A stretch of 64,000 nt of DNA from Escherichia coli (GTDB lineage Bacteria; Pseudomonadota; Gammaproteobacteria; Enterobacterales; Enterobacteriaceae). Where the stretch lies: NCBI RefSeq assembly GCF_003790525.1, contig NZ_CP033635.1; one strand, 5' to 3'. Positions within the stretch are counted from its first letter, which is position 1. Every line of letters begins with the position of its first letter. The notes below the pieces were generated by a model. It searched no databases. It saw nothing but the letters and a program-made list of their open reading frames with translations, and was not told the origin of the DNA. A program made the translations under genes and the position numbers. Below are positions 24,036-46,303 of this stretch, piece after piece.

Positions 24036-24721
24036 ATGTCGTTACTTGCACAACTGGATCAAAAAATCGCTGCTAACGGTGGCCTGATTGTCTCCTGCCA
24101 GCCGGTTCCTGACAGCCCGCTCGATAAACCCGAAATCGTCGCAGCCATGGCATTAGCGGCAGAGCAGGCGGGCGCGGTTGCCATTCGCATCGAAGGTGTG
24201 GTAAATCTGCAAGCCACGCGTGCGGTGGTGAGCGTGCCAATTATCGGGATTGTCAAACGCGATCTGGAGGATTCTCCGGTACGTATCACGGCCTATATTG
24301 AAGATGTCGATGCGCTGGCGCAGGCGGGCGCGGACATTATCGCCATTGACGGCACCGACCGCCCGCGTCCGGTGCCTGTTGAAACGCTGCTGGCACGTAT
24401 CCATCATCACGGTTTACTGGCGATGACCGACTGCTCAACGCCGGAAGACGGCCTGGCATGCCAAAAGCTGGGAGCCGAAATTATTGGCACTACGCTTTCT
24501 GGCTATACCACGCCTGAAACGCCAGAAGAGCCGGATCTGGCGCTGGTGAAAACGTTGAGCGACGCCGGATGTCGAGTGATTGCCGAAGGGCGTTACAACA
24601 CGCCTGCTCAGGCGGCGGATGCGATGCGCCACGGCGCGTGGGCGGTGACGGTCGGTTCTGCCATTACGCGTCTTGAACACATTTGTCAGTGGTACAACAC
24701 AGCGATGAAAAAGGCGGTGCT

Positions 24722-27095: not shown

Positions 27096-28265
27096 TCAGG
27101 CGGTTTCTCTTGCTGTCACTACGCCATTTTGCGCAGCCCACAGATTCACATCTTCCTTACGAATGGCGGCGGCCATCATGCCGGGGAATAAATCTGGGGT
27201 ACAGGCAAAGGAGGGAATACCCATGGCGGCGAGTTTTCCTGCCAGTGACCGGTCGTAAAACGGCGCACCTTCATCGCTTAAGGCCAGCAGGGTAACCACC
27301 TGTACGCCGGACTGAATCAACTCACTGGCGCGTTGCAACAGATTGCGTTCCACCCCGCCTTCGTAGAGGTCGGAAATCAGCACCAGAATGGTATTGCGCG
27401 GATCGCGAATCAAAGACTGGCAGTAGCCCACCGCGCGGTTGATGTCGGTGCCGCCACCCAGCTGTACGCCAAACAGCAGCTCTACCGGATCGTCGAGCTT
27501 CTCTGTCATATCAACGACTGCGGTGTCGAAAACCACCAGATGCGTTTTTACCGCCGGGAGCGATGCCATTACTGCGCCAAAAATACTGGAATAGACCACC
27601 GAGGAGGCCATCGACCCACTCTGGTCGATACATAAAATGATCTCCTTTTGCGTGCGTTGAGACTTGCGCCCGTAGCCGATCAGCGTTTCAGGAACAATAC
27701 TTTTATACTCTTCCTGCCAGTGGCGCAGGTTGGCGCGAATGGTGCGCTGCCAGTCAATTTCCGCGTGGCGCGGGCGACGATTACGTACCGCACGATTAAG
27801 AGCGCCGCTTACCGCGCTACGCATTGGCTCTTCAAGCTGTTTCATCAATTGCTCGACAACTTTACGCACCACAAGCCTGGCGGTTTCTTTGGTTTTGGCC
27901 GGAATTACGCCATTCAGCGACATCAGCGTGGAGACCAGATGAACATCAGGCTGGACGTTTGCCAGCATCTCCGGCTCCAGCAACATACTGTGCAAATTAA
28001 GACGTTCAAAGGCGTCTTTTTGCATCACCTGAACCACAGAAGAAGGGAAATACTGGCGAATATCACCCAGCCAGCGAGCGACTTTGGGTGACGATCCACC
28101 CGTGCCGCCGCGTAATCCATGTTTACCCTCTGGCTGATACAGCGCCGCCAGCGCGGCATCAATCGCGGACTCTCTGGCATCCAGCGCCACGTTACAGGCA
28201 TTGTCGGCATCTTCTCCAAGGATCAGACGCCAGCGGCGCAGCCGTTCCATTTCGTTACTCGACAT
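27096..28265 (-). CDS. von Willebrand factor A (VWA) domain protein with complete MIDAS motif (389 aa); fifth gene of novel operon
   Basis: DQSGSM (DxSxS), GGGTD and LISDLYEGG motifs seen in the translation; start overlaps the upstream gene's stop by 11 nt. Confidence 0.85.
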   Translation of the reverse strand: MSSNEMERLRRWRLILGEDADNACNVALDARESAIDAALAALYQPEGKHGLRGGTGGSSPKVARWLGDIRQYFPSSVVQVMQKDAFERLNLHSMLLEPEMLANVQPDVHLVSTLMSLNGVIPAKTKETARLVVRKVVEQLMKQLEEPMRSAVSGALNRAVRNRRPRHAEIDWQRTIRANLRHWQEEYKSIVPETLIGYGRKSQRTQKEIILCIDQSGSMASSVVYSSIFGAVMASLPAVKTHLVVFDTAVVDMTEKLDDPVELLFGVQLGGGTDINRAVGYCQSLIRDPRNTILVLISDLYEGGVERNLLQRASELIQSGVQVVTLLALSDEGAPFYDRSLAGKLAAMGIPSFACTPDLFPGMMAAAIRKEDVNLWAAQNGVVTARETA

Positions 28266-30504
28266 GATTTTCCCTTTCGTGTGGTGGCAAAGCCAGAATG
28301 CGGCGCAGTAGCGGCAGCATTAACGCGGCACGCTGTTCATCCCATATACCGCTGGTCTCTTCTTGCTGCGCGACACGCTCGCCCTGCGCGGCGCGTTCGC
28401 CTAACTGGCGGCGTTCCGGGCTGGAAAAACGGCCGAATGTCCGCCGCAGCATCGGCAGGATCCGGGTGAAGTGATTGTCGTTCAGGCCGCTTAGCCAGGC
28501 ATCGATCAACTGCCATAATTCGCTATTGTGCAGTAGCACCATCGCGCTGTCGTTGAGGAAACCTTCCGCCCATGCGGCACTTTCCGCCGGGGGATTGGCT
28601 GGCGATAGCGCCAGGTTCATCAGCGTGCTGATCCGTTCTGTCGTTAACGTTTGCAGATCAAACAACAGGCGCGTCGCCGTTCCGCGAAGCAGCGCGTGTG
28701 CGGTACTGCCCTCTGCCAGCACCATCAACGCCTGCAACCAGCCCGCCAATAGATCTTCGTTATCCAGCAACCGCAGCGCGGCGTGGGCGTCGATAACTTT
28801 TTCTCTCATACTGGCGGCGCTGTCGTCGTTGAGCGCCGAACAGGCTCCGGGTAGGGCGATGGCGGCGCGCGGGGCGAGGCTCATCAGTACCTGCATTACC
28901 ATACCAGAGTCGGTCTGGCGCACGTTGCCGTAGCGGACAATCGCCACCAGTGGTGCCAGGGCTTCCAGCAACTGTTCGATATTGCCCTGAGTGGCAGCCA
29001 GTGATTCCAGTGTATTGGCGATGGGGGCAATCGCGGTCTGTAAATCGGCCAGTAGCACCTGTTGGATAAGCTTTGCCAGTTCCGGCAGCGTGCTGGCGTA
29101 TTGCGCCCTCACAATGGCATAGCGGGAGCTGGCCTGCTCAATGCTGTTACCCCAACGGCTGGCGGTAATGATGTTGATTGCCAGTGCCGGTTCCCAGCGC
29201 AGCGACCAGACTTCGTGGAACGTCCCTTTGCTGTTATTTCCTTGTCCAGCCAGACGGCCCCAGGAAATGTCGAGTAAGGTCAGGCGATGCAGTAAATGGC
29301 TACGCGCCAGATCGCCGGGTTTGCGCAGATCAAGATCCAGCACTTTTTCGCTGGCTTCTGCCTTCAGGCGCAGCGTTTTTTGCTGTTGCGTAATGTCGCG
29401 TTGGAGCGGCACGACGGGCGTATCATCCGGTACGCTTCCCAGCGCGTCGCCGACAATTAACTTCTGGCGAATCATCTGCATTGGCGCGCTTTCGCCCATA
29501 CACACTACGGTTTGCAGCGCTTCGCAAAGTTCGTCAAGCCCCGGCTGCGGGTGATGGCGCATAATCGCCAGCGTCTGCGCCAGCCGCGCCGCTTCGATAA
29601 TGTGGGCGCTGGAACAGTCGAGATCGGCTTCGCGAAACAGCCTTGCCGCGCGTGACAGCCAGCCGATATCGCGGTGAGAAGCGCCCTGATAACGCCACAG
29701 ATGATCGTACCATTCCGGTGACACCACCCCTGCGCCATAACCGCTGGCGCGGCTTAACGCCTCGTAGCTCCAGGGCGTCCAGGCTGCCGCGACCTTGCAC
29801 TTCGGCAAATTTTTCAGCAGTTCGTTATCATTCTTTGCGGGCGGCAGGTTTTCCAGCGCCGGAACGTGCCACGCACCGCAGACTACCGCGATGCGCGAGA
29901 AGCCCTCTTTTTTCGCCTGACGTAGCGTCTTGCGCATATACGCTTCACGCAGTTGATCTCTGGCTGAGTTTCGGGCTTCGGGAGTTGCCTGGCGTAGGGC
30001 AATCATCGCCTCGCGAATCGCCTCGAACAGAGACAAATCATCTTCGCGTTCCTCTACTCTGTGGCTCCACCAGCTTTCCCCATCGGTGTAACCGGCGGCG
30101 CGGCCCAGCCAGTCCAGCGGATCGCCGTCGGGACTGGCTTCAACGGCATCATCGTCATCGCTCTCTTTTTCGTCATCAAGCGCGAACTGATGACTGATGG
30201 GCAAGTCCATAAAGCGCACGGCGATATTTTGCTCAAAACCATAGCGCAGCGCCTGCCATTCCGGGGAGAACGCCGCAAAGGGGTAAAACGCGGCGTGATG
30301 TGAGTCGTCCGGGGCATAAATCAGTAGCGCGACCGGCGGTTGCATCTGTTCATGCTGCATAAAAGGCAGGATGGATTCGCCGTCGGGCGGCCCTTCCACC
30401 AGCAGGCAGTCGGGCTGTAGCGTCTCCAGCGCCTTTCGCAGGCTGCGCGCGCAGCCAGGGCCATGGTGACGGATGCCAAACAAATGAACGGTTTGTTCAG
30501 TCAT
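28255..30504 (-). CDS. Large hypothetical protein (749 aa), no motif recognised; fourth gene of novel operon
   Basis: Uninterrupted 2.25-kb ORF; AAGG RBS in the 17-nt gap after the AAA+ gene; acidic stretch DDEKESDDDDAVEASPDGD; helical Leu/Ala-rich C-terminal half. Confidence 0.8.
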   Translation of the reverse strand: MTEQTVHLFGIRHHGPGCARSLRKALETLQPDCLLVEGPPDGESILPFMQHEQMQPPVALLIYAPDDSHHAAFYPFAAFSPEWQALRYGFEQNIAVRFMDLPISHQFALDDEKESDDDDAVEASPDGDPLDWLGRAAGYTDGESWWSHRVEEREDDLSLFEAIREAMIALRQATPEARNSARDQLREAYMRKTLRQAKKEGFSRIAVVCGAWHVPALENLPPAKNDNELLKNLPKCKVAAAWTPWSYEALSRASGYGAGVVSPEWYDHLWRYQGASHRDIGWLSRAARLFREADLDCSSAHIIEAARLAQTLAIMRHHPQPGLDELCEALQTVVCMGESAPMQMIRQKLIVGDALGSVPDDTPVVPLQRDITQQQKTLRLKAEASEKVLDLDLRKPGDLARSHLLHRLTLLDISWGRLAGQGNNSKGTFHEVWSLRWEPALAINIITASRWGNSIEQASSRYAIVRAQYASTLPELAKLIQQVLLADLQTAIAPIANTLESLAATQGNIEQLLEALAPLVAIVRYGNVRQTDSGMVMQVLMSLAPRAAIALPGACSALNDDSAASMREKVIDAHAALRLLDNEDLLAGWLQALMVLAEGSTAHALLRGTATRLLFDLQTLTTERISTLMNLALSPANPPAESAAWAEGFLNDSAMVLLHNSELWQLIDAWLSGLNDNHFTRILPMLRRTFGRFSSPERRQLGERAAQGERVAQQEETSGIWDEQRAALMLPLLRRILALPPHERENHVE

Positions 30505-30521
30505 AGTGGTTGCCTTGCTGA

Positions 30522-31616
30522 TTACACAATTTCGCGGCAGGCGCGATAGAGATCGTTCCAGTCGCTGCGCTCTTTGACTATAGTTTCCAGATATTCACGC
30601 CATACCACGTCGTCCTGCACGGGATCTTTTACCACCGCGCCGATAAGGCTTGCGGCGATATCCCGCGGATGTAGCACGCCGTCGCCAAAATGGCCCGCCA
30701 GCGCCATACCGTTGTTGATAACGGAGATCGCCTCCGCGGTGCTGAGAGTACTGGTTGGCGACTTAATTTTCGTTTTGCCGTCAACCGTCAGGCCGTTTCG
30801 CAGTTCGCGGAAGATTTGCACGACTCGCTGGATCTCTTTAAGCGCTGGCGGTTCGGCAGGAAGTGCCAGCGCCTGACCCAGTTCGGCGACGCGGCGAGTG
30901 ACAATGTTAATCTCTTCTTCTTCGCTGGCGGGTACGGGCAAAATGACCGTGTTGAAACGACGTTTAAGTGCGGAAGAAAGCTCGTTAACGCCTTTATCCC
31001 GGTTGTTGGCGGTGGCGATAACGTTAAAGCCGCGCGTCGCCTGGACCTCTTCATTCAGTTCGGGGATAGGCAGCGTTTTTTCCGACAGGATCGTGATCAG
31101 CGTGTCCTGAACATCGGCAGGAATACGCGTCAGCTCTTCTACGCGGGCAATCTGCCCGCGTGCCATCGCCCGCATCAATGGGCTTTCTACCAGCGCCGAA
31201 CGTGACGGACCTTTAGAGAGCAACTCCGCGTAGTTCCAGCCATAACGCATTTGTTCTTCACCGGTGCCTGCGGTGCCCTGAATAATTAACGTTGAGTCGC
31301 CGCTGATGGCAGCCGCCAGATGTTCAGAGACCCAGGATTTCGCAGTGCCGGGTACGCCATACAACAGCAGTGCGCGATCGGTTGCCAGCGTGGCAACGGC
31401 GGTTTCGATAATCCGCCTGTTGCCGATATATTTCGGCGTGACCTCAAAACCATTTTCCAGTTGCCCGCCTAACAGATAAGTAGCAACGGACCACGGAGAA
31501 ATAGCCCAGTTTTCCGGGCGCGGATGAGTATCGTTTTTTTGCAGCTCATCCAGTTCTTCTGCAAATTGTTGTTCGGCATGTCGGCGTAAAACGGCGGCAG
31601 TAGCGGTGGAAGTCAT
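30522..31616 (-). CDS. MoxR-like AAA+ ATPase (364 aa from ATG 31616); third gene of novel operon
   Basis: Walker A LLLYGVPGTAKS (GxPGxAKS, MoxR-type), Walker B-like IARVEELTRIPADVQ, sensor-1 NVIATANN, Arg finger LKRRF; ATG overlaps the upstream stop as ATGA. Confidence 0.85.
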   Translation of the reverse strand: MTSTATAAVLRRHAEQQFAEELDELQKNDTHPRPENWAISPWSVATYLLGGQLENGFEVTPKYIGNRRIIETAVATLATDRALLLYGVPGTAKSWVSEHLAAAISGDSTLIIQGTAGTGEEQMRYGWNYAELLSKGPSRSALVESPLMRAMARGQIARVEELTRIPADVQDTLITILSEKTLPIPELNEEVQATRGFNVIATANNRDKGVNELSSALKRRFNTVILPVPASEEEEINIVTRRVAELGQALALPAEPPALKEIQRVVQIFRELRNGLTVDGKTKIKSPTSTLSTAEAISVINNGMALAGHFGDGVLHPRDIAASLIGAVVKDPVQDDVVWREYLETIVKERSDWNDLYRACREIV

Positions 31617-33217
31617 AAAGTAGTTTCTCCGACAAAAAACGAATGAAGTTGAATTCGGTGCGCCAGCGTGGCGCTCAGGGCAGTAAAGGCTGCCTCGCAA
31701 TAAGGCGTTTGTTGTGCGTCATGCGGCCACTTGTCAATGACATCATTGAGGACTTCGGGGGCCAGCAGGCAGGCGAAATCACTCATCACATGGCGCAGGG
31801 CGTAGTCAAAGCGCGCGGAATCATGTTTCACCCAACGGTGCAGCTCCGTGACCATTTGCTGGCTCAGGCGCAGGCTAAAGAGCGACGCATCCAGCGGTAA
31901 CAGGGCGATGTAGCGTTGTAAATGTTCGCCGCCCATTACCGAGAACAGTAACGTCAACACTGGCTCGTGTTCTTCTACGGGCAGGCATTGCAGAAGCTCA
32001 AAGGCGTTAATCTTCACGCCAGCAGGGGAATGAATGCTTATTCCGACGGGGAGTAGGGCGAGGAATGCCTGCGCCCACTGTGGATTTTTTTCGCGCAGGA
32101 CGGCGTGATACCAGGCGCGCAGTAGCGCCTCCTGCCAGTCGGTTTTCCCGGCCCAGCGCAGCAGTTCAACGGGGGTAGCCTGCAGTTGCGTTTGCCACCA
32201 GTCGAGCGGAACCGCTGCAACTATCTGATACAGCCACCATGCGCGCTGGCCCAACTTTTCGCCTTTGGGCTTAGTTTCTTCCAGCGCATCGGCCTTCCAC
32301 TCTGGTAAGAACGCCTCCGGGGCATCAAGGGCGACGCGCAGCATTTTTTCTTTGCCGGATAAGCCTTTTAGCCTTTCAAGTAAGGTCTCAGGAGCGGGGG
32401 ATGAACTGAGCAACGGCGCTAACCGAGACTTCATGCGCGAGATCCAGGCGCTTTCCGGCAGACAACACAGTAACCGTGCCGCAGTTTGCCGCACCTCTTT
32501 GCTGCGATCGGATAATGTCTGTTCCAGAAAGGCTTCGTCGTGTTGGGAGATCCCCACTTCCAGCACAGCCAGCAGCTGTGCGCGTTCGCGGGCATCCAGC
32601 GAACTCATCTCCTGCGCCAGCCGATCGCGACCCTGTTCCGGGGCGCGAATGCGCATTTGCGTCAGATATTGCAGACGCTGTTCGGACGTGCCGTGCAGCC
32701 ACATTTCTTCATCCAGCGGAGCGTCAGTGGAGGCGAGAACATAGCCCCAATCGGCGTTGATTTGCGCCAGCCAGCACCCGCGAGCGCCCAGAACATTGGA
32801 CAGGATGCCGCGTAGAGATGGCTTTTGCGCTCCATAATTCAGCAATGCTGGTAACAGCAGGGGCGGAGGAAGAAGTTGACGACGGACCAATAGATCAAGC
32901 GCCGACCACAGCAACCGCGGCGGTCCTTCTGACAGCAGCAGATGCAGCAGTCCCGCAAAAGCCGGGTTGTTTATTGGCTCGGCATTTTCTTTATCGATTT
33001 CCGGCAGCGGTGCGGGGTCAATCGCCTGCGGCACCCAGCCAGCCAGATGGCAGAGCGCCAGAACGCCCGCCGAGCGCAGTAGCTGTTGCTCTGCGGATGT
33101 GTTATTCGCCAGTTCAGACAGTAACAGCCCAATCTCACTTTGCGACGCCGACGGTGTAAACGCTTTTTTGTCTGTGCCGAGTAGCGCTGTGCGGGTTAAA
33201 TTTTGCCATTCGTTCAT
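31613..33217 (-). CDS. Hypothetical alpha-helical Leu-rich protein (534 aa from ATG 33217; 541 aa if 33238); second gene of novel operon
   Basis: Long ORF; ATG at 33217 forms an ATGA overlap with the SWIM gene stop; Leu/Ala/Trp-rich repeat-like sequence; no catalytic motif recognised. Confidence 0.8.
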   Translation of the reverse strand: MNEWQNLTRTALLGTDKKAFTPSASQSEIGLLLSELANNTSAEQQLLRSAGVLALCHLAGWVPQAIDPAPLPEIDKENAEPINNPAFAGLLHLLLSEGPPRLLWSALDLLVRRQLLPPPLLLPALLNYGAQKPSLRGILSNVLGARGCWLAQINADWGYVLASTDAPLDEEMWLHGTSEQRLQYLTQMRIRAPEQGRDRLAQEMSSLDARERAQLLAVLEVGISQHDEAFLEQTLSDRSKEVRQTAARLLCCLPESAWISRMKSRLAPLLSSSPAPETLLERLKGLSGKEKMLRVALDAPEAFLPEWKADALEETKPKGEKLGQRAWWLYQIVAAVPLDWWQTQLQATPVELLRWAGKTDWQEALLRAWYHAVLREKNPQWAQAFLALLPVGISIHSPAGVKINAFELLQCLPVEEHEPVLTLLFSVMGGEHLQRYIALLPLDASLFSLRLSQQMVTELHRWVKHDSARFDYALRHVMSDFACLLAPEVLNDVIDKWPHDAQQTPYCEAAFTALSATLAHRIQLHSFFVGETTL

Positions 33218-34536
33218 TGTGCGCCTCCGGTTGCCCAAATGACGCTACCGGCAAGCCAGGCGCTACAGGGCGTCAGCTGCTGACCATCCCATTCCCCCAT
33301 TAGCATAAACGGCGCGCCGCCGCTGGCCGCCAGTAACCGCCAACCCTCGTCCGACGACAGGTGCGTCGGTAAGTGCTGGCCCTGTGTCGAGACGAATCGC
33401 CAGCCGCTCTCGTGCGGGTAAATCAATATTTCGCTTACTCGCAGCGGCAGAGGCCATTGCCAGGGATTCGCGCTAAGCCGCTGCGCCATGTCATGCAGCG
33501 CGTCCGGGAGGGGTAATTCTGCAAGCGGGAATCTTTCACCGCGGGTAAACGGCTCCACAACCCGCGCCCGTAGCGGTGATGCGCCAGGGAAAAAGGCAAG
33601 CGCGCCCTGGCAGACTTGCCCGGTGATAAAGTGCTGGGGAAAGTTTTTACTACCGTGTGAATAGTCCAGCAGTAGCGCGGTGCGGTGGCTCTTTTCTCCG
33701 TACAGCCAGACCCGGCGTCGCCACAGATTATTCCCTTCTTGCGCGCTTTGACCTAAGACCTGCCAGTTATCGAGGCAGGTTAATCCGTCAGTGACGTCGT
33801 GTTTATCCGGGGGTATTCCCAATGCCGCATGGAGATCGCTAAGTTGTGCCGGGGATAACATTTGTTGCTGGCGCCAGGCGTCAATAATCAGCTGTAGCTG
33901 CCCCAGTTCTTTGCACAGGCTCGATGGCCATACCTCGGCGGTAGTAAAATGAGTGGTCAGATTGTTCAGGCGAGCGGCAATTCCCGGTAGTTGGGCGTCG
34001 ACCATGCGGGCGGCGATCCCGGCAAAAGGCAACTGTTGTGCAGAGATCTGCGCCAGACCGTGGCGGATCAGGTCGTGCATCCACTGTTCGAGGAAATCCA
34101 GCCCCGCCGTCATTTTTTGGTTGCGTGCCGCTTCCCGTTTGGCGGCAGCCTGCGGGTCGGCAGCTTTTGCCTCAGCCTGCTCTTTCTTCTCTTCTTTGCG
34201 AACCGCCCGCTGCTGGCGCGAGGTTAGCCACTCGCTTACCCATTCCGGCGGCTCGCCAGCGGTGAAACTTGCGGTGTGTTGCACCTGGAGAAAAAGCAAC
34301 GCAAGGCTATGTTTACAGGGGAATTTACGGCTGGGGCAGGAACATTTACAGGCCAGATCCTGTCTGTCGATTCGTACCTGATAAGGGCGGGAGCCGCTAC
34401 CTTTACACTCTCCCCAGAAGGCAGCCTCGCTATATCCGAGCGTCGGCCATTTTGCGGGAGCAACCAGGCCACGAGCCGCTTTAACCGAGGCGTCATCGGG
34501 CGCCAGGGCTTGCACTGATTCAACGGTCAGTTCCAT
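33214..34536 (-). CDS. SWIM zinc-finger domain protein (440 aa); first gene of novel operon
   Basis: CxCxnCxH signature at residues 63-76 (ACKCSCPSRKFPCKHSLALLF); first ORF downstream of gltD on the same strand. Confidence 0.85.
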   Translation of the reverse strand: MELTVESVQALAPDDASVKAARGLVAPAKWPTLGYSEAAFWGECKGSGSRPYQVRIDRQDLACKCSCPSRKFPCKHSLALLFLQVQHTASFTAGEPPEWVSEWLTSRQQRAVRKEEKKEQAEAKAADPQAAAKREAARNQKMTAGLDFLEQWMHDLIRHGLAQISAQQLPFAGIAARMVDAQLPGIAARLNNLTTHFTTAEVWPSSLCKELGQLQLIIDAWRQQQMLSPAQLSDLHAALGIPPDKHDVTDGLTCLDNWQVLGQSAQEGNNLWRRRVWLYGEKSHRTALLLDYSHGSKNFPQHFITGQVCQGALAFFPGASPLRARVVEPFTRGERFPLAELPLPDALHDMAQRLSANPWQWPLPLRVSEILIYPHESGWRFVSTQGQHLPTHLSSDEGWRLLAASGGAPFMLMGEWDGQQLTPCSAWLAGSVIWATGGAQ

Positions 34537-42358: not shown

Positions 42359-44695
42359 ATGAAGCAAATTCGTCTGCTGGCGCAGTATTATGTTGACCTG
42401 ATGATGAAGTTAGGTCTGGTGCGCTTCTCAATGTTGCTGGCGCTGGCCCTCGTCGTTCTTGCCATTGTGGTACAAATGGCGGTAACCATGGTGCTGCATG
42501 GTCAGGTCGAAAGCATTGATGTTATTCGTTCTATCTTCTTTGGTTTGCTGATTACGCCGTGGGCGGTCTACTTTCTATCGGTGGTCGTCGAGCAACTGGA
42601 GGAGTCACGGCAACGTCTGTCACGACTGGTGCAAAAACTGGAGGAGATGCGCGAGCGCGATTTGAGCCTCAACGTTCAGTTAAAAGATAATATTGCCCAG
42701 CTAAATCAGGAAATCGCCGTTCGTGAAAAAGCGGAAGCAGAACTGCAGGAAACCTTCGGCCAACTGAAAATTGAAATCAAAGAGCGCGAAGAGACACAAA
42801 TTCAGCTCGAGCAGCAATCCTCATTCTTACGTTCCTTCCTTGATGCTTCACCCGACCTGGTTTTTTATCGTAACGAAGATAAAGAGTTTTCCGGCTGTAA
42901 CCGCGCGATGGAGCTGCTGACCGGAAAAAGCGAAAAACAACTGGTTCACCTGAAACCTGCTGATGTTTACTCACCGGAAGCCGCCGCAAAAGTCATTGAA
43001 ACCGATGAAAAAGTGTTCCGTCATAATGTGTCACTGACCTATGAACAGTGGCTGGATTACCCGGACGGGCGCAAAGCCTGCTTTGAAATCCGTAAAGTGC
43101 CGTACTACGACCGCGTGGGTAAACGTCACGGTTTGATGGGCTTTGGTCGCGACATTACCGAGCGTAAGCGGTATCAGGATGCGCTTGAACGGGCCAGCCG
43201 CGACAAAACGACGTTTATCTCCACCATCAGTCACGAATTGCGTACGCCGCTGAATGGTATCGTCGGCCTGAGCCGCATTCTGCTGGATACCGAACTCACC
43301 GCCGAGCAGGAAAAATATCTCAAAACCATCCATGTTTCGGCCGTCACGCTGGGGAATATCTTCAACGATATTATCGACATGGATAAGATGGAACGGCGCA
43401 AGGTCCAGCTTGATAATCAGCCGGTTGATTTCACCAGCTTCCTTGCCGATCTGGAAAATCTCTCCGCCTTGCAGGCGCAACAAAAAGGATTGCGCTTTAA
43501 CCTGGAGCCTACGCTGCCATTACCGCATCAGGTCATTACCGACGGGACGCGTTTACGGCAGATCCTGTGGAACCTCATCAGTAACGCCGTCAAATTCACC
43601 CAGCAAGGCCAGGTTACCGTGCGCGTGCGCTACGATGAAGGCGATATGCTGCATTTTGAAGTGGAAGATTCCGGCATTGGCATTCCGCAGGATGAGCTGG
43701 ATAAAATTTTCGCCATGTATTACCAGGTGAAAGACAGTCATGGCGGTAAACCTGCCACCGGCACCGGTATTGGTCTGGCCGTTTCTCGTCGTCTGGCGAA
43801 AAATATGGGCGGCGATATTACGGTTACCAGCGAACAGGGCAAAGGTTCAACCTTTACGTTGACGATCCACGCACCGTCGGTGGCAGAAGAGGTCGATGAT
43901 GCGTTTGATGAAGACGATATGCCTTTACCGGCGCTGAATGTACTGCTGGTGGAAGACATTGAACTGAACGTGATTGTCGCGCGTTCTGTGCTGGAAAAAT
44001 TAGGTAACAGCGTTGATGTCGCCATGACCGGCAAGGCGGCGCTGGAGATGTTTAAACCGGGCGAATACGACCTGGTATTGCTGGATATTCAGTTGCCAGA
44101 TATGACCGGGCTGGATATCTCTCGTGAACTGACGAAGCGTTATCCGCGCGAGGATTTACCACCGCTGGTGGCCTTAACCGCTAACGTGCTGAAAGACAAA
44201 CAAGAGTACCTCAATGCTGGAATGGATGATGTGCTGAGTAAGCCGCTTTCTGTTCCGGCGCTAACCGCGATGATCAAGAAATTCTGGGATACCCAGGATG
44301 ATGAGGAGAGTACGGTGACGACAGAAGAGAACAGTAAATCAGAAGCATTGCTCGATATTCCCATGCTGGAACAGTATCTCGAACTTGTAGGACCGAAGCT
44401 GATCACCGACGGGTTAGCGGTATTTGAGAAGATGATGCCGGGATATGTTAGCGTGCTGGAGTCGAATCTGACGGCGCAGGATAAAAAAGGCATTGTTGAG
44501 GAAGGACATAAAATTAAAGGTGCGGCGGGGTCAGTGGGGTTACGCCATCTGCAACAGTTGGGTCAGCAAATTCAGTCTCCTGACCTTCCCGCCTGGGAAG
44601 ATAACGTCGGTGAATGGATTGAAGAGATGAAAGAAGAGTGGCGTCACGACGTAGAAGTACTGAAAGCGTGGGTGGCAAAAGCTACTAAAAAATGA
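42359..44695 (+). CDS. arcB: Aerobic respiration control sensor kinase ArcB (778 aa)
   Basis: Full ORF; H-box SHELRTPLN, receiver and HPt domains; recognised as ArcB. Confidence 0.97.
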   Translation: MKQIRLLAQYYVDLMMKLGLVRFSMLLALALVVLAIVVQMAVTMVLHGQVESIDVIRSIFFGLLITPWAVYFLSVVVEQLEESRQRLSRLVQKLEEMRERDLSLNVQLKDNIAQLNQEIAVREKAEAELQETFGQLKIEIKEREETQIQLEQQSSFLRSFLDASPDLVFYRNEDKEFSGCNRAMELLTGKSEKQLVHLKPADVYSPEAAAKVIETDEKVFRHNVSLTYEQWLDYPDGRKACFEIRKVPYYDRVGKRHGLMGFGRDITERKRYQDALERASRDKTTFISTISHELRTPLNGIVGLSRILLDTELTAEQEKYLKTIHVSAVTLGNIFNDIIDMDKMERRKVQLDNQPVDFTSFLADLENLSALQAQQKGLRFNLEPTLPLPHQVITDGTRLRQILWNLISNAVKFTQQGQVTVRVRYDEGDMLHFEVEDSGIGIPQDELDKIFAMYYQVKDSHGGKPATGTGIGLAVSRRLAKNMGGDITVTSEQGKGSTFTLTIHAPSVAEEVDDAFDEDDMPLPALNVLLVEDIELNVIVARSVLEKLGNSVDVAMTGKAALEMFKPGEYDLVLLDIQLPDMTGLDISRELTKRYPREDLPPLVALTANVLKDKQEYLNAGMDDVLSKPLSVPALTAMIKKFWDTQDDEESTVTTEENSKSEALLDIPMLEQYLELVGPKLITDGLAVFEKMMPGYVSVLESNLTAQDKKGIVEEGHKIKGAAGSVGLRHLQQLGQQIQSPDLPAWEDNVGEWIEEMKEEWRHDVEVLKAWVAKATKK

Positions 44696-44805
44696 CCCCG
44701 GCTAGACCGGGGTGCGCGAATACTGCGCCAACACCAGGGAAATCTTGGCTGCGCCGTAAATTATTATGATGAGTTACAAGGGCACAGCACTGTTTTTCAG
44801 GCCGC
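44687..44805 (-). ncRNA. arcZ: Small regulatory RNA ArcZ (SraH/RyhA), convergent with arcB and overlapping its 3' end
   Basis: Reverse complement reads GTGCGGCCTGAAAAACAGTGCTGTGCCC...GGCGCAGTATTCGCGCACCCCGGTCTAGCCGGGGTCATTTTTT, matching the recalled ArcZ sequence and terminator. Confidence 0.8.
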
Positions 44806-44924
44806 ACGCAGTTAAGATAGCAAAACTTAAATGATTTGTTACATGAATCAGTTAAATGTGTGATGCGTAGCATTTTTATTAAAAAAATTAATGTGTTTCA
44901 GTCAATTGCGAAAGGATGATCACA

Positions 44925-45578
44925 ATGAAGAAAATTGGCGTAATTCTGAGCGGATGCGGCGTCTATGACGGTTCTGAAATTCATGAAGCGGTGTTGACGT
45001 TGTTAGCTATTTCACGCAGCGGTGCGCAGGCGGTCTGCTTTGCACCGGATAAGCAGCAGGTTGATGTAATCAATCATTTAACTGGCGAAGCGATGCCGGA
45101 AACGCGCAATGTGCTGATTGAAGCGGCACGAATAACGCGTGGTGAGATCCGCCCTCTGGCCCAGGCCGATGCCGCTGAGCTGGATGCGTTGATTGTGCCG
45201 GGGGGGTTTGGTGCGGCGAAGAATTTAAGCAACTTTGCCCGTCTGGGGAGTGAATGCACCGTTGACCGTGAATTAAAGGCGCTGGCACAAGCGATGCATC
45301 AGGCCGGAAAACCGCTTGGTTTTATGTGTATTGCCCCGGCGATGCTGCCGAAAATTTTCGATTTCCCGCTGCGTTTGACCATCGGTACTGATATTGATAC
45401 CGCAGAAGTGCTGGAAGAGATGGGCGCGGAGCATGTGCCGTGTCCTGTCGATGATATCGTGGTTGATGAAGACAATAAGATTGTCACCACCCCTGCATAT
45501 ATGCTGGCGCAGAACATTGCAGAAGCGGCGAGCGGCATTGATAAGCTGGTTTCCCGCGTGCTGGTCCTGGCGGAATGA
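44925..45578 (+). CDS. elbB: DJ-1/PfpI-family protein ElbB (217 aa)
   Basis: [21 protein letters not shown]...; recognised as ElbB. Confidence 0.92.
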
Positions 45579-46303
45579 GTAAAAGCCGCTTAACGGTGTT
45601 TAGTTTCGTTCGCCGTTTTCTTCTGCGGTTAATGGTTGTCCTCGCCGTTTTCTGGGGCGGGGGCATCGCGTTGTTTAGCGTTGCGCCTGTTCCCTTCTCA
45701 GCGGTAATGGTTGAGCGGCAAGTCAGCGCCTGGCTGCATGGCAATTTTCGTTACGTGGCACATTCTGACTGGGTCAGTATGGATCAAATCTCGCCGTGGA
45801 TGGGACTGGCGGTGATTGCCGCAGAAGATCAGAAATTTCCTGAGCACTGGGGCTTTGATGTCGCTTCCATTGAGCAAGCCCTGGCGCACAACGAACGCAA
45901 TGAAAACCGTATTCGCGGTGCGTCAACGATTTCTCAGCAGACAGCCAAAAATCTCTTTTTATGGGATGGGCGCAGCTGGGTTCGAAAAGGGCTGGAAGCC
46001 GGATTAACGCTGGGGATAGAAACGGTCTGGAGCAAAAAGCGTATCCTGACGGTTTACCTGAATATCGCCGAATTTGGCGACGGTGTGTTTGGCGTCGAAG
46101 CTGCGGCACAACGTTATTTCCACAAACCCGCGAGCAAGCTTACCCGGTCGGAAGCTGCATTACTGGCAGCTGTATTACCTAATCCACTTCGTTTCAAAGT
46201 CTCCGCGCCATCGGGCTACGTGCGTAGCCGTCAGGCGTGGATTTTACGGCAGATGTATCAGTTAGGCGGTGAGCCGTTTATGCAACAACACCAGCTTGAT
46301 TAA
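45575..46303 (+). CDS. mtgA: Monofunctional peptidoglycan glycosyltransferase MtgA (242 aa)
   Basis: Full ORF overlapping the elbB stop; transglycosylase motifs ([13 protein letters not shown]); recognised as MtgA. Confidence 0.95.

Follow-up and report, generated by a model that had tools for sequence, protein, structure and literature searches.

The small RNA ArcZ (older names SraH and RyhA) is made as a 121-nt primary transcript that is bound by Hfq and from which RNase E releases a 3' fragment of ∼56 nt (PMC11331407). This fragment base-pairs with mRNAs, with the result that rpoS is activated and flhDC, mutS, sdaC, tpx, and others are repressed (PMC11331407, PMC4152358, PMC3937726, PMC5580658). 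At low oxygen, phosphorylated ArcA (ArcA-P) is reported to repress arcZ (PMC11331407, PMC4152358, PMC3937726, PMC5580658). Thus, ArcZ ties the respiratory redox state to the general stress sigma factor RpoS, and it connects oxygen/redox sensing by ArcB/ArcA with motility, mutagenesis, and biofilm formation as well.

Regulation between ArcZ and arcB is reported to be mutual. Two articles that cite Mandin & Gottesman 2010 describe repression of ArcZ by ArcA/ArcB and a lowering of arcB mRNA by ArcZ (PMC3937726, PMC4152358), and transcription of arcB is said, in the literature on ArcZ, to lower ArcZ in turn (PMC11331407, PMC4152358, PMC3937726, PMC5580658). One review states the overlap of the two genes as the cause of their mutual repression (PMC4152358); in a later review, from 2024, the antisense mechanism “is speculated” (PMC11331407). 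The overlap as the cause of mutual regulation is, at present, a published proposal and not an established fact. In E. amylovora, an arcB translational fusion was unresponsive to ArcZ (PMC6895013), a result that does not bear on the antisense idea because the arcB 3' end is not expected to be present in that fusion.

Results

Identity of the arcZ Gene

The window, that is, the whole 64,000-nt stretch of E. coli DNA that was analyzed, was scanned in its entirety against Rfam at gathering level, and ArcZ was the sole family to reach its gathering score anywhere between positions 1 and 64000. The ArcZ model (RF00081) matched the minus strand from 44807 to 44700 over its full length (model positions 1-106 of 106) with a score of 120.8 bits and E = 4.1e-27, the gathering threshold of the family being 66 bits. 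Alignment of 44687-44807 (minus strand) with arcZ of K-12 (b4450) gave 121 identical positions out of 121. A preliminary description of this DNA had called the gene ArcZ and had named both of these checks, a match of the Rfam ArcZ model to the interval and an alignment to annotated arcZ; the call is borne out by each. The interval it gave, 44687-44805, is correct at the 3' end and 2 nt short at the 5' end, which lies at 44807.

The arcB coding sequence, which appears in the list of open reading frames and in the RefSeq annotation of E. coli SMS-3-5, encodes a sensor histidine kinase of 778 aa and occupies 42359-44695 on the plus strand. It is therefore convergent with arcZ, which runs from 44807 to 44687 on the minus strand, and the two genes have 9 nt in common (44687-44695). 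The curated K-12 record describes the same situation, with the ncRNA gene arcZ (b4450) at 3350577-3350697 on the plus strand, arcB at 3350689-3353025 on the minus strand, and a 9-nt overlap. Convergence with arcB, overlap with its 3' end, and the view that the arrangement is a known one had all been put forward in the preliminary description, and on the last point the K-12 record and a review (PMC11331407) agree. Its further remark that the overlap underlies mutual ArcB/ArcZ regulation is too strong and would be better given as a published proposal. The downstream neighbor of arcB on the same strand, elbB (44925-45578, plus strand; RefSeq and open reading frame list), is divergent from the arcZ promoter, and the gene order arcB-arcZ-elbB-mtgA is the same in the window, K-12, and SMS-3-5.

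Over 221 aligned bases, the window differs from K-12 at only two positions, both of which lie outside arcZ. One, on the upstream side and 63 nt away from the ArcZ 5' end, is a single substitution; the other is a synonymous change in arcB (GCT versus GCC, both Ala) located 4 nt past the ArcZ 3' end. The 501 nt surrounding the site match SMS-3-5 at 100% identity and recur in 5416 of the 5426 complete E. coli genomes; among the 5416 genomes with a match, 5395 carry the 121-nt arcZ at an identity of at least 99%. The only feature reported beneath the arcZ match in these E. coli genome searches was arcB.

The window corresponds to the reverse complement of NC_010498.1 3557997-3621996 (E. coli SMS-3-5); of its 64,000 bases, only two, at window positions 24202 and 41235, are mismatched. 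The RefSeq annotation of SMS-3-5 contains no arcZ feature at this site (NC_010498.1 3577190-3577310), and arcB, elbB, mtgA, and yrbL are annotated. Elsewhere in the window, a cluster of five genes is present on the minus strand (27096-34536) between gltD and nanQ, encoding SWIM zinc-finger, DUF5691, AAA_5 (MoxR-like) ATPase, DUF5682, and VWA_CoxE proteins. A PADLOC scan of the proteins of this SWIM/MoxR/VWA cluster matched none of the five. The place where the cluster sits is occupied in K-12 by gltF and the yhc fimbrial genes, so that the cluster looks like a strain-variable insert.

The Terminator Hairpin and the 9-nt Overlap

The arcB reading frame ends with ...GCT ACT AAA AAA TGA, the TGA stop codon being located at 44693-44695. 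The 9-nt stretch that belongs to both genes, AAAAAATGA (44687-44695), consists of the codons AAA AAA TGA (Lys-Lys-stop), and its complement is the ArcZ 3' tail UCAUUUUUU, comprising UCA and the U-tract. The sequence ccccggctagaccgggg is found once in the window, on the plus strand at 44696-44712. This hairpin begins at the first base past the arcB stop and so covers no arcB codon; it is situated in the arcB 3' untranslated region. Hairpin and U-tract together had been described as lying over the last codons and the stop of arcB, a placement that holds for the U-tract but not for the hairpin, which starts after the stop.

On the minus strand, the ArcZ terminator hairpin CCCCGGUCUAGCCGGGG (44696-44712) has the stem ACCCCGGT-CTA-GCCGGGGT followed by CATTTTTT and is the only terminator-like minus-strand site in 44400-45100. 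The terminator scan assigned it 8 pairs, 6 of which are G-C, followed by a T-run. In an alignment of the 3' part of ArcZ from 102 sequences, 99.4% of the cells of this helix were paired, compared with 24-49% in controls in which the pairing partner had been slid along the alignment. Three of the pairs showed changes on both sides, e.g. G-C to A-U in Photorhabdus, Xenorhabdus, and Proteus. As judged from the alignment, compensatory changes back the terminator hairpin, which is the sole ArcZ element with covariation support. Sequence and covariation place the end of ArcZ at this intrinsic terminator, with the hairpin directly after the arcB stop and a U-tract complementary to the last two Lys codons and the stop of arcB.

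The Conserved 3' Core and the Variable 5' Half

Counted back from the annotated 3' end, the last 56 nt of ArcZ (44687-44742, minus strand) would correspond to the processed active form of the literature, where a 56-nt RNase E product is reported (PMC11331407), and contain the conserved core UUCCCUGGUGUUGGCGCAGU. The 20-nt core TTCCCTGGTGTTGGCGCAGT was found as an exact match in at least 120 Enterobacterales species genomes and forms invariant columns in the 102-sequence alignment. Within the core, the Rfam consensus structure has an inner stem-loop, GCGC-AGUAUUC-GCGC (44714-44728, minus strand), whose 4 pairs are invariant in all 102 sequences; this stem is uninformative on covariation because it never varies.

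The 5' half of ArcZ varies in both sequence and length, with insertions and deletions, in an alignment of 16 Enterobacteriaceae. Such variation fits published accounts, according to which activity and conservation reside in the 3' part of ∼56 nt (PMC11331407). A minimum-free-energy fold of full-length ArcZ (z = -2.7) was also obtained and was set aside, its pairing between the 5' end and the core being different from the Rfam consensus.

The arcB/arcZ Junction across Enterobacterales

Species-representative genomes were scanned with the exact 20-nt core, which yielded at least 120 loci. The named records among the matches listed were all Enterobacterales, and the genera represented include Escherichia, Salmonella, Citrobacter, Enterobacter, Yersinia, Photorhabdus, and Xenorhabdus as well as Proteus, Providencia, Edwardsiella, Erwinia, Pantoea, and Rahnella. 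For 118 of the loci listed, the convergent arcB C-terminus was located by tblastn and extended to the stop codon. The convergent layout of arcB and arcZ was observed in every one of these 118 species.

With the ArcZ 3' end assumed to coincide with the last base of the first T-run that follows the hairpin, the overlap amounts to 9-11 nt in 98 of the 118 species; in these, the complement of the stop codon (UCA or UUA) stands directly after the hairpin, and ArcB ends in Lys-Lys without exception (98 of 98). On the same assumption, 8 species have an overlap of 1-2 nt, 11 have none (0 to -58 nt; those named belong to Pantoea, Mixta, Hafnia, and Chimaeribacter), and a single species has an overlap of 23 nt in which arcB runs into the hairpin loop. 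The coding overlap is thus 0-2 nt or absent in 19 of the 118 species, from which it follows that it is dispensable for the retention of ArcZ. These counts agree with the statements of a review that the overlap is usually ∼ten bases and that it is not universal (PMC11331407). In Pectobacterium carotovorum, the overlap is reported to be missing (PMC11331407).

Several individual junctions were recorded in the course of this comparison. In Pantoea sp. 1.19 (L022), the arcB frame appears to cover 23 nt of ArcZ and to have its stop inside the hairpin loop, although a sequencing error may be responsible. In Chimaeribacter californicus (L079), arcB stops short of ArcZ, with 58 nt between its stop and the end of the ArcZ U-run. 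Gaps of 3-10 nt separate arcB from ArcZ at the junctions of L014, L019, L036, L037, L060, L075, and L087, and those among them with listed names are Pantoea species.

Where the arcB stop has moved away, GGGGUCAUUUUUU is nevertheless kept. Its retention despite the moved stop suggests that the ArcZ 3' end is constrained by the needs of ArcZ itself and not by arcB coding. As far as the sequences suggest, these needs may be termination, to which the literature would add Hfq binding.

Termination of arcB and Probable Read-through into arcZ

No plus-strand terminator was predicted between the arcB stop and elbB (44696-44925), and the only terminator-like site on this strand before the yrbL junction is located at 46065-46080, inside mtgA. 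In plus-strand RNA, the hairpin still folds right after the arcB stop; it is then followed by GCGCGAAU, with no U-tract. Given that the two genes converge and that no terminator is predicted for arcB itself, its transcripts probably extend over arcZ, in part or in full, in the antisense direction. The complementarity between arcB and arcZ may plausibly far exceed 9 nt, and the 9-nt coding overlap would appear to mark the arrangement rather than to be, by itself, the mechanism. Read-through from arcB would supply what the reported mutual repression requires, either extended complementarity or a collision of polymerases. It may also be that arcB is co-transcribed into elbB-mtgA across arcZ antisense. 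A literature search on the arcB 3' end, with respect to convergence and termination, returned nothing usable.

These observations have to be set against a rival account in which the gene is ArcZ and the coding overlap is an accident of tight packing that plays no regulatory part, the reported effects being exerted only through transcription control by ArcA and through pairing in trans. Nine coding nucleotides are too few for stable pairing alone, and the 19 species with a lost or 0-2-nt overlap have retained GGGGUCAUUUUUU; the account is also in keeping with the missing overlap in Pectobacterium carotovorum and with the description of the antisense mechanism as speculative (PMC11331407). By contrast, the convergent layout in all 118 species examined argues against mere accident, and an arcB gene without a predicted terminator would give an mRNA that is probably complementary to ArcZ wherever the stop codon happens to sit. 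An overlap without any regulatory part is, on this evidence, rather unlikely.

Much less can be said for the view that hairpin and T-run together are simply a bidirectional terminator of arcB and the neighboring gene, without a separate sRNA gene. It is true that the palindromic stem also folds in plus-strand RNA directly after the arcB stop and that the RefSeq annotation of the strain has no RNA gene here. However, on the plus strand, GCGCGAAUAC rather than a U-tract comes after the hairpin, and only the minus strand is assigned a terminator by the scan. Moreover, the 108 nt upstream on the minus strand match the full ArcZ covariance model (E = 4e-27), and the minus-strand sequence is identical to a curated ncRNA gene and is preceded by a conserved promoter. 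The full-length Rfam match and the identity to K-12 arcZ refute the bidirectional-terminator reading, the probability of which is negligible.

The Putative arcZ Promoter and Its Upstream Region

Inspection by eye of the region upstream of arcZ revealed a putative sigma-70 promoter at 44814-44842 on the minus strand, with GTAACA (44842-44837) as the -35 element, a 17-nt spacer, and the extended -10 element TGcTATCTT (44822-44814). Transcription would, from this position, be predicted to start at G 44807. GTAACA and TTGCTATCTT are invariant in the alignment of 16 Enterobacteriaceae. A sigma-70 scan of 44400-45100 gave no promoter at its threshold; the cut-off was 9 of 12 consensus positions, and the arcZ promoter is absent from the resulting list because its score of 8 of 12 falls below this value. 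In the proposed scheme, arcZ would be transcribed on the minus strand from this conserved sigma-70 promoter with its extended -10 element.

Upstream of the -35 element, a further block, TCACACATTT (44854-44863, minus strand), is near-invariant in the 16 Enterobacteriaceae and is a candidate regulator-binding site. Relative to the ArcZ 5' end, the block sits ∼47-56 nt upstream; it matched no known motif. The 15-nt ArcA box GTTAATTAAATGTTA was absent near 44808-44900 when up to 3 mismatches were allowed. At the same stringency (≤3 mismatches), 2 matches were obtained in the 64-kb window, a count no higher than chance, and neither was near arcZ. In a genome-wide ChIP study, the region upstream of arcZ was reported to be free of ArcA sites (PMC3798270), and the 2024 review has ArcA binding the arcZ promoter (PMC11331407). 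At the sequence level, direct ArcA binding at the arcZ promoter is weakly supported.

The suggestion that the interval encodes a 62-aa small protein, instead of or besides the sRNA, relies on an open reading frame (44685-44873, minus strand) that is present in the mechanically compiled list and spans all of arcZ, but it was rejected as exceedingly improbable, since its ATG (44873) precedes the ArcZ 5' end by 66 nt and falls inside the promoter region, which leaves the complete frame absent from the ArcZ transcript, and since conservation is RNA-like (invariant 3' core, compensated hairpin, variable 5' half), with 5'-half insertions and deletions in other genera of the 16-species alignment that would break the frame.

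Discussion

E. coli carries its chromosomal arcZ at this locus, an identification that goes far beyond chance and that nothing contradicts. The explanation given here as the best, with the promoter and read-through from arcB as probable parts of it, is assigned a probability of roughly 0.97. The arrangement of arcZ and arcB is an ordinary one that has been described before, and the site is a textbook sRNA locus, already known. The locus confirms only that a reader of raw sequence is able to spot an sRNA that is not annotated, and no new biology follows from it. A small addition comes from the comparison of species: where the arcB stop falls relative to the hairpin, together with the -KK terminus of ArcB, is the same in 98 of the 118 Enterobacterales sampled but is not universal.

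A more far-reaching version of the read-through model may be formulated, in which arcB is read antisense through all of arcZ and its promoter, and possibly on into elbB-mtgA, with transcriptional interference or a long duplex as the outcome and with the ArcZ terminator dictating the Lys-Lys end of ArcB. This version is tentative and is considered possible, at odds clearly below even. Were it true, the two genes would functionally overlap well beyond the annotated 9 nt, and mutual repression would arise from interference between convergent transcription events or from a long RNA duplex. The ArcZ terminator would, moreover, set the Lys-Lys C-terminus of ArcB in most Enterobacterales.

With regard to known systems, the closest is ArcZ itself (RF00081, K-12 b4450): the gene here has the same sequence and terminator, lies in the same orientation between arcB and elbB, and overlaps arcB by the same 9 nt, with zero differences from K-12 b4450 inside the gene. 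GadY likewise binds Hfq and is encoded in cis, on the strand opposite to a regulator gene, gadX, whose 3' end it overlaps, and its 3' complementarity affects the mRNA (PMC3937726). The effect of GadY on gadX/gadW is positive and proceeds by way of RNase III processing, whereas the reported effect of ArcZ is a lowering of arcB mRNA; also unlike GadY, ArcZ acts mainly in trans on unlinked targets. DsrA and RprA resemble ArcZ as Hfq-dependent activators of rpoS translation and have in common with it the rpoS leader as target and the outcome (PMC4152358, PMC3937726). They differ from ArcZ in being unrelated in sequence and genomic context, and neither of the two converges with the gene of its controlling sensor kinase.
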